A stretch of DNA of 37,809 nucleotides from a virus. Lineage: Duplodnaviria; Heunggongvirae; Uroviricota; Caudoviricetes. The notes beneath the pieces were generated by a model. It was not told the DNA's origin. It made no database searches and saw only the letters and a program-made list of their open reading frames with translations. This document shows, in pieces, positions 1,111 through 36,378 of the stretch (positions are counted from its first letter, which is position 1; each line of letters begins with the position of its first letter). The translations under genes were made by a program, and so were the position numbers. The stretch is taken from the IMG/VR virus record IMGVR_UViG_2602041644_000008, positions 1 to 37,809 of that record, one strand, 5' to 3'.

Positions 1111-1142
1111 AAAAACCCTCTGTAGTAACAGAGGGTTTTGTT
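1111..1142. terminator. Bidirectional rho-independent terminator at the host/prophage boundary
   Basis: Stem CCCTCTG/CAGAGGG (1116-1122/1129-1135), loop TAGTAA, flanked by A5 upstream and T4 downstream. Confidence 0.6.
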
Positions 1143-5936: not shown

Positions 5937-6040
5937 GTTAAATCTCCAGATAGTCGCAGCACCCGTTGCGCCGCATATCTGGTTATTCTATTACCCAAAA
6001 AACCATATATGGATAGAAAGACTGTGAATATGAATAGATA

Positions 6041-6055
6041 TTACCTTTCAGGTAA
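6041..6055. promoter_or_regulatory. Operator-like palindrome TTACC-TTTCA-GGTAA (copy 1 of 13)
   Basis: Perfect inverted repeat with A/T flanks, intergenic between the tailspike start and the small antirepressor-domain gene. Confidence 0.6.
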
Positions 6056-6092
6056 TTTGCAAAACGTGCTGGATAGCAAACAAATTATTTGC

Positions 6093-6396: not shown

Positions 6397-6412
6397 GGCC
6401 GCTAGAGCGGCC
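6397..6412. terminator. Bidirectional terminator between convergent genes
   Basis: GGCCGC-TAGA-GCGGCC hairpin with T-rich flanks on both strands; overlaps the stop of the minus-strand gene. Confidence 0.5.
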
Positions 6413-7140
6413 TATCGTTTCGCTTTGTGCTCGTCCCAGCACGTTTTGCACCATGCCATTAAGCCATCCGCATTTTGATTATTAGGGTAAAAGCTGGTTC
6501 GTTTTCTGCGGACATTACAAATTGGGCACCACTTCATATGGCGTGTATTCTTTGGACCATCGAGACACCTTGCACACCACTTAGTCAATCCATCTGGATT
6601 TTTTGACGATTTCCTGAATTTTTCATATGGAAGGTTTATTCTGCATCGCAAGCACTGCTTGCTACCACTTGAAACTCTGTTAGCTGATTCTTCTTTTGGC
6701 GGCGATACAGAAGGTATTCTTGCTGGCTCTGATACTGCCTGAGGTGCTTTTTTAGATGACTGAGACGATATGTCATCACCAGGGAATCGTCCATGATATG
6801 CCGGACGCGTTGACACTCCAGGTGGAAGCTCTGCTGTAAATGGCTTTGGCTGAATCAGTTGCCTCTCTTTTGCTAACTCCTGCTGTTTATAATATGTCTG
6901 GATTACCGCACTATCATAAGCAGGAGGTGCGGAAATATTAGGCGCATTACCTCCAGTTTTTTGAAACTGAGTAGAGGTGTGTTCTATCACCTGTGTACGA
7001 TTAATCGTTATCTCCCCATCTTCGGTCTTTATCGTTTTGTTATGATTAACGACCGTACGATCAGAGATCTTAGTCTTGTTCTGGTTGATAACATAAATAA
7101 TCACCGCAACCACACCAACAACTATCCAGAAAACTTCCAT
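6412..7140 (-). CDS. Membrane-anchored protein with two C-terminal zinc-ribbon-like repeats
   Basis: N-terminal TM helix, Pro/Ser-rich linker, then two repeats of C-x2-C ... DGL-x3-WC-x2-C; AT-rich gene; no family recognised. Confidence 0.5.
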   Translation of the reverse strand: MEVFWIVVGVVAVIIYVINQNKTKISDRTVVNHNKTIKTEDGEITINRTQVIEHTSTQFQKTGGNAPNISAPPAYDSAVIQTYYKQQELAKERQLIQPKPFTAELPPGVSTRPAYHGRFPGDDISSQSSKKAPQAVSEPARIPSVSPPKEESANRVSSGSKQCLRCRINLPYEKFRKSSKNPDGLTKWCARCLDGPKNTRHMKWCPICNVRRKRTSFYPNNQNADGLMAWCKTCWDEHKAKR

Positions 7141-7160
7141 TGCTTTTCCTCACAATAACA

Positions 7161-7175
7161 TTACCTTAAAGGTAA
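7161..7175. promoter_or_regulatory. Operator-like palindrome TTACC-TTAAA-GGTAA (copy 2)
   Basis: Perfect inverted repeat 21 bp upstream of the minus-strand gene start (7140). Confidence 0.6.
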
Positions 7176-7253
7176 TATCTTGCTTTCAGGTGATCAAGCG
7201 TTAAACGCAATCAACCAAATAAGGTTGATTTTAATATTTCTTCGCGTTTATCA

Positions 7254-7268
7254 TTACCTTTTAGGTAA
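7254..7268. promoter_or_regulatory. Operator-like palindrome TTACC-TTTTA-GGTAA (copy 3)
   Basis: Perfect inverted repeat at the start of the structured leader upstream of the antirepressor. Confidence 0.6.
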
Positions 7269-7535
7269 ATTTACATCGCACTCCTCTTGTGCCATAGTAA
7301 TTGGGCACTGGCAAAATCCAGTGCCGGGATTGGTCTCCCGGATTACTACAGAGGCACATATGCCGCATAAGCGGTTTTTTTATGTGTAAAGCGCACCTAT
7401 TCTATGGTGAGCTGTGTGGGGGCACCGAAAGGTGCGCCGGGTTCCTTTGTAGCCGGTAAGACCAACTCTGCACAGTTCACCACCATCTGATTGGTCTCAG
7501 CGGTGGTGATTAACCTAACTACAAAGGTGATCGCC

Positions 7536-8228
7536 ATGAATACCAAACCTTCCATCTTTTCCTTTGAGTCATCCTGCCAGATCCGTATGTTCATGATTGA
7601 CGGAGAACCTTGGTTTGTCACCAAAGATGTGTGCAATGCTTTGAATATTGATGTTACACAAGCGAGAAAACTTGATAAAAAAGGCTGGAACAAAAAGGGG
7701 CTGTATTCAATACAGACCCCTGGTGGAATACAAGAACTATCCATCGTTTCAGAATCAGGTCTCTACATCCTTATTCTGCGTTGCAAAGAGGCAATGACAG
7801 AGGGAACGAGAGCGTTCAGATTTCTTGAATGGGTTACAGGTGAGGTTCTTCCTCAGATCCGCCGCACCGGAAGTTACATTAAAAACTCGCTCCCGCAGGA
7901 AGAACGCATAAAGATGGTTGCCGACCAGGTAGCCAACGCCACAGCATCAGCAATGATGCAGGCAATGAAGATAGAGAACAAAACCTACAGTGCCCCACTG
8001 AAGCCCGGCTACCGTAGCCTGATTCATTCTCCGTCTGGTGTTCTCGGCCTGACGGAGAACTCACTGCTGATGAATCTGCTGAACCAGTTACAGGAAGACG
8101 GGCACGATGTATCGGGCGCGGCGGCGGAGCTGACCACCATGTTCTGCTACATCGTCGGTGTGAGCAAATGCCTGCGTGATATCCAGACCCACGCGGAGTA
8201 CATCAACGACAAAGCAGGATTCTTCTGA
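7536..8228 (+). CDS. Antirepressor with N-terminal BRO-N domain and C-terminal antirepressor domain
   Basis: SD AAGGTGA before the ATG at 7536; N-terminal region (IRMFMIDGEPWFVTKDVCNAL ... GLYILILRCKEA ... FRFLEWV) matches the BRO-N fold pattern; C-terminal domain paralogous to the small gene at 6133-6390. Confidence 0.65.
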   Translation: MNTKPSIFSFESSCQIRMFMIDGEPWFVTKDVCNALNIDVTQARKLDKKGWNKKGLYSIQTPGGIQELSIVSESGLYILILRCKEAMTEGTRAFRFLEWVTGEVLPQIRRTGSYIKNSLPQEERIKMVADQVANATASAMMQAMKIENKTYSAPLKPGYRSLIHSPSGVLGLTENSLLMNLLNQLQEDGHDVSGAAAELTTMFCYIVGVSKCLRDIQTHAEYINDKAGFF

Positions 8229-8258: not shown

Positions 8259-8300
8259 TAATTCTGTACAGATTGCAGACCGGGGGTGAATAGCGTACTA

Positions 8301-8315
8301 TTACCTTAAAGGTAA
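8301..8315. promoter_or_regulatory. Operator-like palindrome TTACC-TTAAA-GGTAA (copy 4) with adjacent promoter
   Basis: Perfect inverted repeat directly after a candidate -35 TTGCAG / 17 bp / -10 TACTAT; 43 bp upstream of the 8358 cassette. Confidence 0.6.
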
Positions 8316-8357
8316 ACCTGTTTTTATTTTATACCTGTAACTTACCGGAGATTAAAG

Positions 8358-19955: not shown

Positions 19956-20560
19956 CAGGACAACCTCGCAATGGTAAACTCGTCAACCGGTGGCTGTGGT
20001 TCCTGTGATTCATTCTGGCTATGCGAGCCAGCACTCAGAATCACGCGATTGTACATATTGAGGGCAAACGTACCGAGGTCTGCCTTCCCAGTCAGCGCCA
20101 TGTTAATAGCTGCCGCAAGACGCCAGGCCAACGCCTCCATAAAAATGGCATCAAACATGTTCACATCTGAAACGCGAGAGACATACTTGAGCCATGCCTG
20201 CGGCTGGTCTGTGTAGATCAACTTTCCTGTTCCGTTGGTGTCTGCACCAACTTCGTACTGAACGCGCATTGCTGCTGTTGGATTGCGTACACCAGGAAGC
20301 ATAATTTCAGTAATGCGCAGACAATCGGACGGGTACTGGTACGCATATTCCCAGTCAGGCGGTGGATTGCTCGTATCTGCAAGCGCCACGCGTTTGGTAG
20401 CAAAGTTCCAGTCAAAATCAGAAAGCACAGCATCACGGCAGGCCTCAAAGTGCAGCGAACATTCCCCCGCTTCCTTGCTGGCTTCCGTCAGGCTGTTAAT
20501 ACTGCGGCTGTTGCCAATATTGGACAGCGCACGATTGCAGATCTCTACTACAGAGGCCAT
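19955..20560 (-). CDS. Tail tubular protein A (T7 gp11-like adaptor)
   Basis: 201 aa; position and size match gp11; N-terminal region loosely resembles gp11. Confidence 0.55.
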   Translation of the reverse strand: MASVVEICNRALSNIGNSRSINSLTEASKEAGECSLHFEACRDAVLSDFDWNFATKRVALADTSNPPPDWEYAYQYPSDCLRITEIMLPGVRNPTAAMRVQYEVGADTNGTGKLIYTDQPQAWLKYVSRVSDVNMFDAIFMEALAWRLAAAINMALTGKADLGTFALNMYNRVILSAGSHSQNESQEPQPPVDEFTIARLS

Positions 20561-25433: not shown

Positions 25434-25448
25434 ATTACCTTTCAGGTA
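25434..25448. promoter_or_regulatory. Operator-like palindrome TTACC-TTTCA-GGTAA (copy 5)
   Basis: Perfect inverted repeat ~90 bp upstream of the portal-side operon; TTGACA hexamer 17 bp upstream on the plus strand. Confidence 0.55.
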
Positions 25449-25771
25449 AGCAAAGAGTTCATTCCGGTTATTAACCTGACTGGCTTGTCGTTAAATTGAA
25501 CAGGTGGAGTGAGCTTTTATTTTGAGCAGTACGGCGTATGGCACATGCGCCGATAGCGGTCTGGATACGTTTAAGGGGTACCCTCCCTTGCTCGGGCAAA
25601 CGAACCAGGTAGCCGGAATGTGCAAGTCGAGCGGTTTTATTCCGCGCACGGGGATTCACCATCCCGGCGATTCGGTGTGACGCCTCGGAAGAGACGAGGG
25701 TACAACGATGAGAGCATTTATGGAGCCGCGACAAAGTGTGGCGCCTTAACAGGCTAAGTGCTCTCAGCGTT

Positions 25772-25848
25772 GTGGCATTAGCTCAGTTGGACAGAGCAAC
25801 CGCCTTCTAAGCGGTTGGTTGCAGGTTCGAATCCTGCATGCCACGCCA
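25772..25848 (+). tRNA. tRNA-Arg (anticodon UCU)
   Basis: 77 nt; acceptor stem GTGGCAT/ATGCCAC, D-stem GCTC/GAGC, anticodon stem ACCGC/GCGGT with loop CTTCTAA (anticodon TCT), T-arm GCAGG-TTCGAAT-CCTGC, discriminator G and encoded CCA. Confidence 0.85.
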
Positions 25849-33192: not shown

Positions 33193-33239
33193 TTAAAAAC
33201 CACATAAGACACGAAATCAATAGATCTTAGAACATTTTA

Positions 33240-33254
33240 TTACCTAGCAGGTAA
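33240..33254. promoter_or_regulatory. Operator-like palindrome TTACC-TAGCA-GGTAA (copy 7)
   Basis: Perfect inverted repeat with A/T flanks, between the P gene end and the nin region. Confidence 0.55.
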
Positions 33255-33291
33255 TTATCAAGACGTAAAAAAATGCGCTATCGCGCTGGTA

Positions 33292-35105: not shown

Positions 35106-35185
35106 GGTAAGCCCTGTTATTAGTATTGGGATTACGGTCATTTTGTGCTGACACAAAAAAAAGATCAACCACATTTGGTTATTTA

Positions 35186-35200
35186 TTACCTTTGAGGTAC
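35186..35200. promoter_or_regulatory. Operator-like site TTACC-TTTGA-GGTAC (copy 8, one mismatch)
   Basis: Directly downstream (minus sense) of the cro terminator and upstream of the replication genes. Confidence 0.45.
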
Positions 35201-35209
35201 GAATAGATA

Positions 35210-35233
35210 TGAAAAGACCGCCGGGTGGCGGTC
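35210..35233 (-). terminator. tR1-like terminator downstream of cro
   Basis: On the minus strand GACCGCC-ACCC-GGCGGTC followed by TTTTCAT. Confidence 0.55.
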
Positions 35234-35255
35234 TACAGAGGGTTGTAGCTGGATA

Positions 35256-35640: not shown

Positions 35641-36225
35641 ATGAAAAGTATCCAGGACGTCCGCAGGCAAAATCTCAACGACTTGATCGACCGTGAATTC
35701 AATGGTGTTCAGACGCGGATGGCTGAAAAACTTGGAACTCAGGCAAATCTGGTAAACCGCTGGGCTCTTGGCAAGAAGGTTATCGGCGACCAGGTTGCGC
35801 GAAAAATTGAAGCTGCCGCCAATAAACCCCGTAACTGGCTTGATATCGATCGCTCGCTTTCTCAGGAAGGTTTTCAGCCTGTCGGACCAAGCGACATTGG
35901 TCAACTGGCGGCTCACAACCTGGAACGCTGGATGAGCGAAAGCCGCGACCTTTCAACGCAGGGAAAACTTCACCGCGCATCCGGCGTCGCCCAGGTAACA
36001 ATCAGCCGCCTGTTAAACAATGAGGTCAGCGTTTCCATTTCCACCCTGGAGAATGTTGCATCCGCATTTGGGCGTCACGGATATGAATTACTGATTCACC
36101 CGCACGACCCCGCGACTATCAACTATGACCGCTCGCGCTACGCATTGTTACCTGAAACAGAGAAGGCAAAGATCGAAAGTTACATTGAATTTGTCATCAA
36201 CCAGAACGAAAAAAACAAACAATAA
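35641..36225 (+). CDS. Prophage repressor candidate, tandem HTH (XRE-type), no autocleavage domain
   Basis: 194 aa with two HTH-like segments (QTRMAEKLGTQANLVNRWALG and SGVAQVTISRLLNNEVSVSISTLENVA); no Ala-Gly/Ser-Lys protease signature seen; divergent from cro; followed by a terminator. Confidence 0.55.
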   Translation: MKSIQDVRRQNLNDLIDREFNGVQTRMAEKLGTQANLVNRWALGKKVIGDQVARKIEAAANKPRNWLDIDRSLSQEGFQPVGPSDIGQLAAHNLERWMSESRDLSTQGKLHRASGVAQVTISRLLNNEVSVSISTLENVASAFGRHGYELLIHPHDPATINYDRSRYALLPETEKAKIESYIEFVINQNEKNKQ

Positions 36226-36272: not shown

Positions 36273-36282
36273 GCCTATTTGA

Positions 36283-36297
36283 TTACCTAACGGGTAA
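36283..36297. promoter_or_regulatory. Operator TTACC-TAACG-GGTAA (OL-like site, copy 12)
   Basis: Perfect inverted repeat with A/T flanks just after the repressor terminator. Confidence 0.55.
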
Positions 36298-36344
36298 TTT
36301 TTTTAACTCATATCTATTGACATCAAACCAGATACGCATAATTA

Positions 36345-36359
36345 TTACCTCAACGGTAA
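36345..36359. promoter_or_regulatory. Operator TTACC-TCAAC-GGTAA (OL-like site, copy 13) overlapping pL-like promoter
   Basis: TTGACA at 36317-36322, AT-rich -10 region, operator at the predicted start site; 20 nt upstream of the first early-left ORF. Confidence 0.55.
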
Positions 36360-36378
36360 CAGACCGAGGTAACAAGTT

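Follow-up and report, generated by a model that had tools for sequence, protein, structure and literature searches.

Background

In the annotated record of bacteriophage P1, the antirepressor genes ant1/2 come last in the series Oc4, promoters, a1, b1, c4 (77 nt), a2, b2, icd, and ant1/2, and RNase P frees the C4 antisense RNA from its precursor. C4 works there through two short single-stranded elements, a′ and b′, that pair with a2 and b2 ahead of the first gene in the ant operon, and a1 and b1 are an upstream duplicate of these targets. The P1/P7 families C4 and c4-a1b1 (RF01695 and RF03163) belong to one Rfam clan (CL00128). Here, the leader of a BRO-N antirepressor gene (ant) in an epsilon15/phiV10-like (Uetakevirus) prophage of Escherichia coli was analyzed, i.e., positions 7253–7535 of the IMG/VR record IMGVR_UViG_2602041644_000008, whose full stretch of 37,809 nucleotides (nt) is called the window below. 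With a probability of roughly 0.87, this leader is a P1/P7-type immI RNA module, in which a C4 antisense RNA and an IsrK-type short RNA carrying the sites a1 and b1 control ant. This kind of system is already known and the locus is an ordinary member of it.

A second described system is that of the Salmonella prophage Gifsy-1, where IsrK occurs as a short terminated and a long read-through isoform, binds Hfq, and activates the downstream antirepressor in trans. Supplied in trans, IsrK increases anrP translation more than 100-fold in a manner that needs G28 and G31, and the known mechanism includes read-through of the terminator (PMC4825925). Neither RNase P nor bacteriophage P1 is ever mentioned in that paper (PMC4825925), and a 2025 review treats IsrK and c4 as separate entries. 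The two elements have been reported together, with a′/b′ matches and upstream of a BRO-N gene, in the APSE phages of Hamiltonella (PMC7313666), in a purely computational description that deals with another host and phage type and reports on neither a1/b1 nor alternative folds; the leader of APSE-2 is among the DNA matches to the leader studied here. The immI region of P22 resembles this locus in having an ant gene that is silenced by a small RNA over the ribosome-binding site, and in being a second immunity region remote from the main repressor gene; it was to P22 that an initial annotation of the E. coli locus had compared its logic when describing the leader as an attenuator or a small-RNA locus.

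Two RNA families arranged head to tail

Both strands of the region were scanned with Rfam, considering matches up to E = 1. On the plus strand, two families follow each other head to tail, both over their gathering scores: IsrK (RF01394; 7305–7381, 74.7 bits vs. 50, E = 2e−15) and C4 (RF01695; 78.2 bits vs. 45, E = 7e−15, covering the full model from 1 to 87). These matches bear out the earlier proposal of a small-RNA locus in control of the antirepressor. A lysM-TM7 match on the minus strand (7134–7270) had 25 bits vs. a threshold of 61.5 (E = 0.12) and was discarded as a chance hit.

The IsrK stretch folds into three hairpins (−26.4 kcal/mol, z = −2.7; ViennaRNA) and has, in addition to its score, the features of the family, i.e., two 5′ hairpins, which were already recognized in the initial annotation (GCACUGG/CCAGUGC, 7 bp, at 7305–7324 and CGGGA/UCCCG at 7325–7340), and a terminator hairpin followed by a U-run. 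The C4 RNA is built from a 17-bp basal stem, hairpin 1 (GCACC-GAAA-GGUGC, 7422–7435), hairpin 2 (7436–7457), and a 3′ ACC(A) tail; b′ occupies the loop of hairpin 2 and a′ a single-stranded junction. Its minimum free energy (MFE) fold is the Rfam consensus (−44.6 kcal/mol, z = −5.6; ViennaRNA). The whole leader reached a folding z of −4.6, and the high degree of order claimed for it at the outset is well founded on these values and on the two Rfam matches. A covariance analysis of the kind suggested in the initial annotation points in the same direction, as 97.5% of cells are paired among 55 distinct C4 homologues, with compensatory changes in 17 of the 27 pairs, and 87% among 54 IsrK homologues (13 of 17 pairs).

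The ends of the mature C4 were set by aligning the annotated P1 c4 RNA (77 nt) to the window, which places the predicted cut between U7405 (−1) and G7406 (+1) and leaves a 3′ ACCA. A U−1/G+1 junction combined with a 3′ ACC(A) tail is a hallmark of RNase P substrates, the stem of C4 is tRNA-like, and by analogy with the homologous systems C4 would be processed by this enzyme in the E. coli prophage as well.

Four sites complementary to the C4 loops

C4 displays two short sequences, b′ and a′, each of which is complementary to two sites on the same transcript (Table 1). The pair a2/b2 is situated just downstream of C4, with b2 on the ribosome-binding site of ant, while a1/b1 is found upstream, inside the IsrK-like RNA. 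The ant start codon follows b2 after 8 nt and no icd-like open reading frame (ORF) is present between C4 and ant. The 10-mer GATTGGTCTC occurs in the window only at a1 and a2 (0.03 occurrences expected), and the motif CTACAGAGG has six matches vs. 0.33 expected, three of which are b1, b2, and the complement of b′. Local duplex energies amounted to −12.6 kcal/mol for b′-b2, −13.0 kcal/mol for b′-b1, and −9.2 kcal/mol for each a site; only these local values were used, as full duplexfold unrealistically opens both RNAs.

The other three of these matches, exact copies of the b1 sequence CTACAGAGG, are scattered over the window (1117–1125 on the minus strand, 20548–20556, and 35233–35241). They were examined as further C4 targets and rejected, as none of them has an a-site within 80 nt upstream; the copy at 1117 belongs to a terminator hairpin.

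The strand and the extent of these complementarities also bear on the comparison with P22, according to which a sar-like antisense RNA, transcribed from the opposite strand over the ribosome-binding site of ant, would repress the gene. The sar RNA of P22 is encoded on the opposite strand and is fully complementary to its target, whereas the regulator found here shares its strand with ant and acts, like that of P1/P7 immI, through two short complementarities, so the analogy drawn in the initial annotation, which is one of the two things that speak for a P22-type system, picked the wrong family. The other is a minus-strand promoter-like site (7621–7593), but three such sites were found vs. 2.6 expected in shuffles. 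The Rfam scan returned no sar match on either strand at E ≤ 1 (only IsrK, C4, c4-a1b1, and the one chance match), no Arc/Mnt gene adjoins ant, and the conservation of the region is explained by the same-strand C4 system. We give a P22-type arrangement next to no chance.

Co-variation of sites and loops across viral loci

A search of IMG/VR with a pattern for the invariant C4 core yielded 120 loci, 88 of which have canonically placed a2 and b2. The latter represent 37 specificity classes that derive from 26 b′ and 18 a′ sequences, and in all classes the four target sites co-vary with their own loops at fixed positions. As these loci were selected on a2/b2, the upstream sites b1 and a1 provide independent checks: the complementary run of b1 averaged 8.35 nt within a locus vs. 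5.84 nt between loci of different classes, that of a1 6.89 vs. 5.09 nt, and only 1.9–6.5% of the cross-class comparisons reached the within-locus median. The distance from the end of b2 to the start codon of the next gene is 8–11 nt in the 88 loci, and the identity of this gene varies (a BRO-N Ant as in the E. coli prophage, other Ant types, or short ORFs). The sequences a′ and b′ combine independently, with one locus (L082) having the b′ of the window and another a′, and two (L092 and L097) its a′ and another b′, a reshuffling that suggests a modular exchange of immunity specificity among prophages.

Table 1. Features of the ant leader, predicted folds, and operator-like sites in the window
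Feature	Position	Strand	Sequence or property
Operator-like palindrome	7253–7269	+	ATTACCTTTTAGGTAAA; abuts the −35 of the leader promoter
Sigma-70 promoter	7270–7298	+	−35 TTTACA (7270–7275), 17-nt spacer, extended −10 TGcCATAGT (7290–7298)
IsrK-like short RNA	7305–7381	+	RF01394; c4-a1b1 motif plus terminator
a1	7330–7336	+	UUGGUCU; in IsrK hairpin 2 (loop and 3′ side); pairs with a′; putative decoy copy of a2
b1	7346–7354	+	CUACAGAGG; pairs with b′ including one G-U; putative decoy copy of b2
Intrinsic terminator	7362–7381	+	GCCGC-AUAA-GCGGU stem followed by seven U (7375–7381)
Linker (5′ leader of the C4 precursor)	7383–7405	+	includes GCGCACCU (7391–7398)
C4 antisense RNA	7406–7484	+	predicted mature RNA of 79 nt; RF01695 match spans 7400–7487
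b′	7444–7452	+	CCUUUGUAG; loop of C4 hairpin 2; 9 bp with b2, 9 bp with b1
a′	7459–7465	+	AGACCAA; single-stranded C4 junction; 7 bp with a2, 7 bp with a1
a2	7491–7497	+	UUGGUCU; target in the ant mRNA; loop of a small hairpin (7487–7490 with 7497–7500)
Alternative pairing segment	7502–7509	+	GGUGGUGA; two possible partners, the C4 3′ end (7477–7484; makes the outer helix around the a2 hairpin) and AUCGCC by the start codon
b2	7519–7527	+	CUACAAAGG; target overlapping the ant Shine-Dalgarno AAGGUGA (7523–7529)
ant	7536–8228	+	230-aa BRO-N antirepressor; regulated gene
Fold A	7305–7484; 7305–7560		a1:a′ and b1:b′ in cis, extended duplex; −77.0 and −98.4 kcal/mol, respectively
Fold B	7305–7484; 7305–7560		IsrK hairpins and C4 fold; −77.1 and −98.5 kcal/mol, respectively
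Palindrome sites in the window	6040–6056, 7160–7176, 7253–7269, 8300–8316, 25434–25450, 33239–33255, 35185–35201, 36282–36298, 36344–36360		ATTACCT-N3-AGGTAAT

Promoter, operator-like palindrome, and terminator

The promoter scan detected a −35/−10 pair that ends 7 nt before 7305, the nucleotide to which position 1 of the Rfam IsrK model maps, and transcription is predicted to start at ~7305. Counted from there, the transcribed leader measures ~231 nt, and the initial figure of ~270 nt has to be shortened accordingly. Homologous −35/−10 elements are found at equal distance from IsrK position 1 in ~50 diverse loci.

An operator at the start of the leader had been part of the initial annotation, and an operator-like palindrome is indeed present there. 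Its motif (ATTACCT-N3-AGGTAAT) has at least nine sites in the window (15 strand-matches vs. 0.09 expected), which precede several divergent or isolated genes, and two of which flank the early promoter beside a 194-aa double helix-turn-helix (HTH) repressor candidate (35641–36225). Homologues of the epsilon15 type keep the half-sites TTACC/GGTAA and vary in the center of the palindrome. The palindrome at 7253–7269 is presumably a target of the prophage repressor.

The terminator between b1 and C4 is supported by a terminator scan as well as by the 3′ hairpin of the IsrK model, and a U-run is found at the equivalent place in nearly all homologous loci. Its core stem (CCGC-AUAA-GCGG, 7363–7374) had been correctly identified in the initial annotation, but the U-run has seven residues, not eight. 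The terminator ends the IsrK-like RNA and is short and probably leaky.

Given a genuine terminator in the leader, and given that read-through is required for the expression of both C4 and ant, the leader might be viewed as a cis-acting attenuator, in which alternative hairpins of the nascent transcript would decide over termination at 7362–7381 without participation of any trans-acting RNA. The initial annotation had pointed to competing pairings within 7391–7437, and both partners exist, i.e., an 8-bp pairing of GCGCACCU with AGGUGCGC (7430–7437) and the GCACC hairpin of C4. The 8-bp pairing has, however, a probability of 0.0004, is absent from the MFE and centroid folds, and is not conserved, with lineages that have other hairpin-1 sequences lacking a matching complement to 7430–7437 in the linker; it was therefore dropped as a conserved switch. 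As it lies downstream of the terminator, it cannot control it. Two isoenergetic folds are predicted for the read-through transcript (see below), but the terminator hairpin is the same in both and no conserved antiterminator pairing was found, which makes a pure cis-attenuator unlikely; such a device would, moreover, leave the co-varying a/b complementarities unexplained. The leader is not a classical cis-attenuator, and we regard this explanation as very unlikely.

Alternative folds of the read-through RNA

Constrained folding of the read-through RNA gave two isoenergetic global folds, A and B (Table 1), and over 25 specificity classes the mean difference (A minus B) ranged from −0.1 to +1.1 kcal/mol. 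The Shine-Dalgarno sequence of ant sits, in fold B, inside a hairpin (7502–7535) formed by the pairing of GGUGGUGA with AUCGCC, and this hairpin is disrupted in fold A. On the longer transcript (7305–7560), fold A also takes in an outer helix (7477–7484/7502–7509), which excludes six basal pairs of the C4 stem and encloses a small stem (7487–7490/7497–7500) that displays a2 in its loop.

The outer helix and the inner stem were tested as a named structure on 30 diverse sequences, using 500 shuffles and slid controls. In total, 82.4% of cells were paired vs. 64% in the shuffles (none of the 500 reached the observed value), and the covariation score was 0.485 vs. 0.19 in the shuffles and at most 0.17 in the slid controls, with two-sided changes in all four pairs of the inner stem at a2. 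RNAalifold, when run on the a2 region, produced the inner stem without the outer helix. The outer helix may, for instance, play a role in the control of processing or in the presentation of a2. The idea of mutually exclusive folds, put forward in the initial annotation, does not hold for the pair of structures proposed there but survives for this other pair, whose members are isoenergetic and include one co-varying helix. A near-isoenergetic pair is also known from Gifsy-1, where structures A (−85.66 kcal/mol) and B (−84.21 kcal/mol) were resolved on native gels (PMC4825925), a situation that parallels the −77.0 and −77.1 kcal/mol of the folds predicted here.

Comparison with Gifsy-1 and the question of a coding leader

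The Gifsy-1 locus (L123, 34131–34316, minus strand) has the same succession of elements as the E. coli leader, with a three-hairpin IsrK and its leaky terminator, a C4 homologue, and an antirepressor gene; isrK is directly followed by a C4 match of 69 bits. This match coincides with the published ‘orf45’ and with the ~80-nt processed species STnc1160, which is a bona fide C4 homologue. When the numbering of the Gifsy-1 paper is transferred to the sequence, A107 coincides with the A in the conserved AUGG of the C4 5′ end, G28 and G31 fall in a1, and C162 and C159 fall in a′; the helix proven by compensatory mutations (G28-C162 and G31-C159) is therefore a1:a′. The effector chain of AnrP followed by AntQ is specific to that lambdoid prophage.

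The same region of Gifsy-1 is the starting point for an explanation in which the leader encodes a small protein of the ‘Ash’ or orf45 type, whose translation, coupled to that of ant, would be the regulating step, with the RNA folds tuning its ribosome-binding site. The product of a tagged orf45 has been detected in Gifsy-1 and a mutation of its start codon reduced activation (PMC4825925), Pfam Phage_ASH matches translations of the region, and some phage records label it as hypothetical or as ‘Ash family protein’. The Gifsy-1 ORF has 45 codons, starting at the C4 5′ end and overlapping anrP in an AUGA, whereas its counterpart in the window (7404–7490) has 28 codons and stops 46 nt upstream of ant, so the coupling model of Gifsy-1 is not applicable unchanged. 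Across loci, the ORF that begins at the conserved AUGG spans 5–168 aa or extends beyond the 600 nt examined, and its stop is located anywhere between 141 nt before and 366 nt past the next start codon. Where the frame is open, it traverses the promoter, the intrinsic terminator, and the whole C4 gene, and substitutions keep RNA pairs rather than codons; conserved nucleotides with non-conserved amino acids were noted for Gifsy-1 as well (PMC4825925). The initial view that the leader holds no credible ORF still applies, since the longest ones (69, 52, 35, and 28 aa) are all without support. An orf45-type coupling was rejected for the window, as the ORF is not conserved across loci and does not overlap the ATG at 7536, and a coding leader is in our estimation very unlikely.

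The Phage_ASH matches deserve a separate remark. This family (PF10554) scored 58–103 bits (cut-off 26) on the whole-leader translation in three loci (L003, L006, and L019), a translation that covers IsrK, the terminator, C4, a2, and b2, and 23–26 bits on the C4-internal frame in the window (28–39 aa). The overlap suggests that the Phage_ASH family is largely a translated RNA locus, and the annotations of ‘Ash family protein’ in phages probably describe translated RNA genes.

Comparison with P1

The layout of the E. coli leader is that of P1 minus icd. Both share the C4 fold, including the placement of b′ (hairpin loop) and a′ (junction), a U−1/G+1 junction, and a 3′ ACC tail, and in P1, too, a helix connects the C4 3′ end to the segment that follows a2. 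The a sites have 7 nt in both, whereas the b sites have 8 nt in P1 and 9 nt in the window. In P1, C4 and c4-a1b1 score over their thresholds and IsrK under it (35 bits), and b1 is followed by a weaker hairpin and UAUUUUU, while the window has a stronger terminator that scores as a full IsrK. The placement of the palindrome mirrors that of the C1 operator Oc4 on the c4 promoter, and the scattered operator-like sites are reminiscent of the C1 operators of that phage, but the motif and the repressor are different ones and the a′/b′ specificity differs too. P1 is a plasmid prophage with an Ant1/Ant2 pair, as opposed to an integrated epsilon15-like podovirus prophage with a BRO-N Ant.

Another difference concerns icd, which in P1 lies between C4 and ant and provides translational coupling. 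The window lacks it, and b2 therefore covers the ribosome-binding site of ant itself. This direct arrangement is found in many members of the family, and icd is a mark of the P1 subtype, not of the RNA family.

Proposed mechanism

Family membership, folds, complementarities, co-variation, and gene order were computed directly; translational repression and an activating or decoy role of IsrK are proposed by analogy with the homologous systems. Transcription from the sigma-70 promoter at ~7305, limited by the repressor, would mostly halt at the weak terminator and release a ~77-nt IsrK-like RNA with the decoys a1 and b1, while read-through would yield C4 (mature at ~7406–7484) and the ant mRNA. 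After processing, b′ and a′ of C4 would pair with b2 and a2 in the mRNA of their own operon, and equally in that of an incoming phage of the same specificity, occluding the ribosome-binding site of ant. Since b2 overlaps the Shine-Dalgarno sequence, C4 is proposed to block the translation of Ant and, in this way, to protect lysogeny. The IsrK-like RNA, or a1 and b1 in cis, would compete for the loops of C4 and could in this way relieve the block and turn Ant on, as happens upon overexpression of IsrK in Gifsy-1.

Several points weigh against this interpretation. The c4-a1b1 model (RF03163), which covers the 5′ half of IsrK, scored 38.3 bits, under its threshold of 46.7. RNAcofold of C4 with its targets showed no net gain (ddG of 0 to −0.5), in a setting where the programs cannot score loop-loop contacts; the lack of gain is attributable to these loop-loop and junction contacts being pseudoknotted relative to the C4 stem. 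The P1 mechanism, which involves icd coupling, is here transferred to a direct targeting of the ribosome-binding site of ant. The authors of the Gifsy-1 study explain activation through the translation of orf45 coupled to anrP, and they found that mutations of a1 in cis raise basal expression (PMC4825925), an outcome that is not obviously predicted by a1/b1 as pure decoys.

The bistable folds may account for this last effect. A wider and more tentative proposal, which we consider possible though somewhat less likely than its opposite, is that the IsrK-C4 leader acts as a bistable RNA switch in P1, in Gifsy-1, and in hundreds of prophages alike, with the short IsrK acting as an anti-antisense sponge for C4, orf45/STnc1160 of Gifsy-1 being C4, and Phage_ASH being largely translated leader. 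One conformer (A) would pair a1/b1 with a′/b′ in cis and the C4 3′ terminus with the segment following a2, holding C4 as an inactive, unprocessed precursor with a2 in a loop, while the other (B) would consist of the IsrK hairpins and a C4 fold of the mature type. If this were true, two systems that were described separately would merge and the orf45 coupling model of Gifsy-1 would have to be reinterpreted.

Genomic context

The leader fills the gap between a divergent minus-strand gene (6412–7140) and the 230-aa gene that starts with the ATG at 7536. As stated in the initial annotation, the product of the latter is a BRO-N antirepressor (Pfam Bro-N, 2e−13; phrog_130, anti-repressor Ant, 6e−51); NCBIfam has no model either for this Ant or for the ‘Ash’-like translation. 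Prophages in RefSeq E. coli genomes match the region with 98.6% identity, and matches occur in 483 of 5,426 genomes. In the closest RefSeq genome the leader is without any annotated feature, and the phiV10 record annotates nothing more at this place than a ‘putative terminator’ and a note on protein similarity. The antirepressor region of another Uetakevirus, vB_EcoP_ZX5, has 81.6% DNA identity to that of the window, and overexpression of its BRO-N anti-repressor resulted in lower prophage titres (PMC9782041).

Beyond ant, the operator copy at 8300–8316 precedes a 108-aa gene (phrog_5933, function unknown to PHROG). The 170-aa gene that overlaps with it gave a weak match to the YafO toxin, and in the closest RefSeq genome it is listed as a YafO family toxin; the segment 8300–9183 may hold a repressor-controlled, toxin-antitoxin-like pair beside ant. 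ARAGORN detected no tRNA or tmRNA in the leader, and the sole tRNA of the window is a tRNA-Arg (anticodon TCT) inside the prophage at 25772–25848, ~320 nt downstream of the operator-like site at 25434–25450. The sequence ATTGAGTGGGAATGATT, found on the minus strand at ~1164–1180, is the attachment-site core of phiV10, epsilon15, and vB_EcoP_ZX5 (PMC9782041), and one end of the prophage is therefore probably located there.

Conclusions

The finding itself is not new, and the side observations made along the way (the homology of Gifsy-1 orf45 to C4, the co-varying helix, the isoenergetic folds, and the matches of Phage_ASH to the non-coding leader) could be of use to specialists. For annotation, the stretch deserves two non-coding RNA (ncRNA) genes, IsrK-like and C4, together with their target sites. 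For the epsilon15-like prophage, the module would mean a second, RNA-based layer of immunity over the antirepressor, in which the sequence of a′ and b′ would set the immunity specificity.

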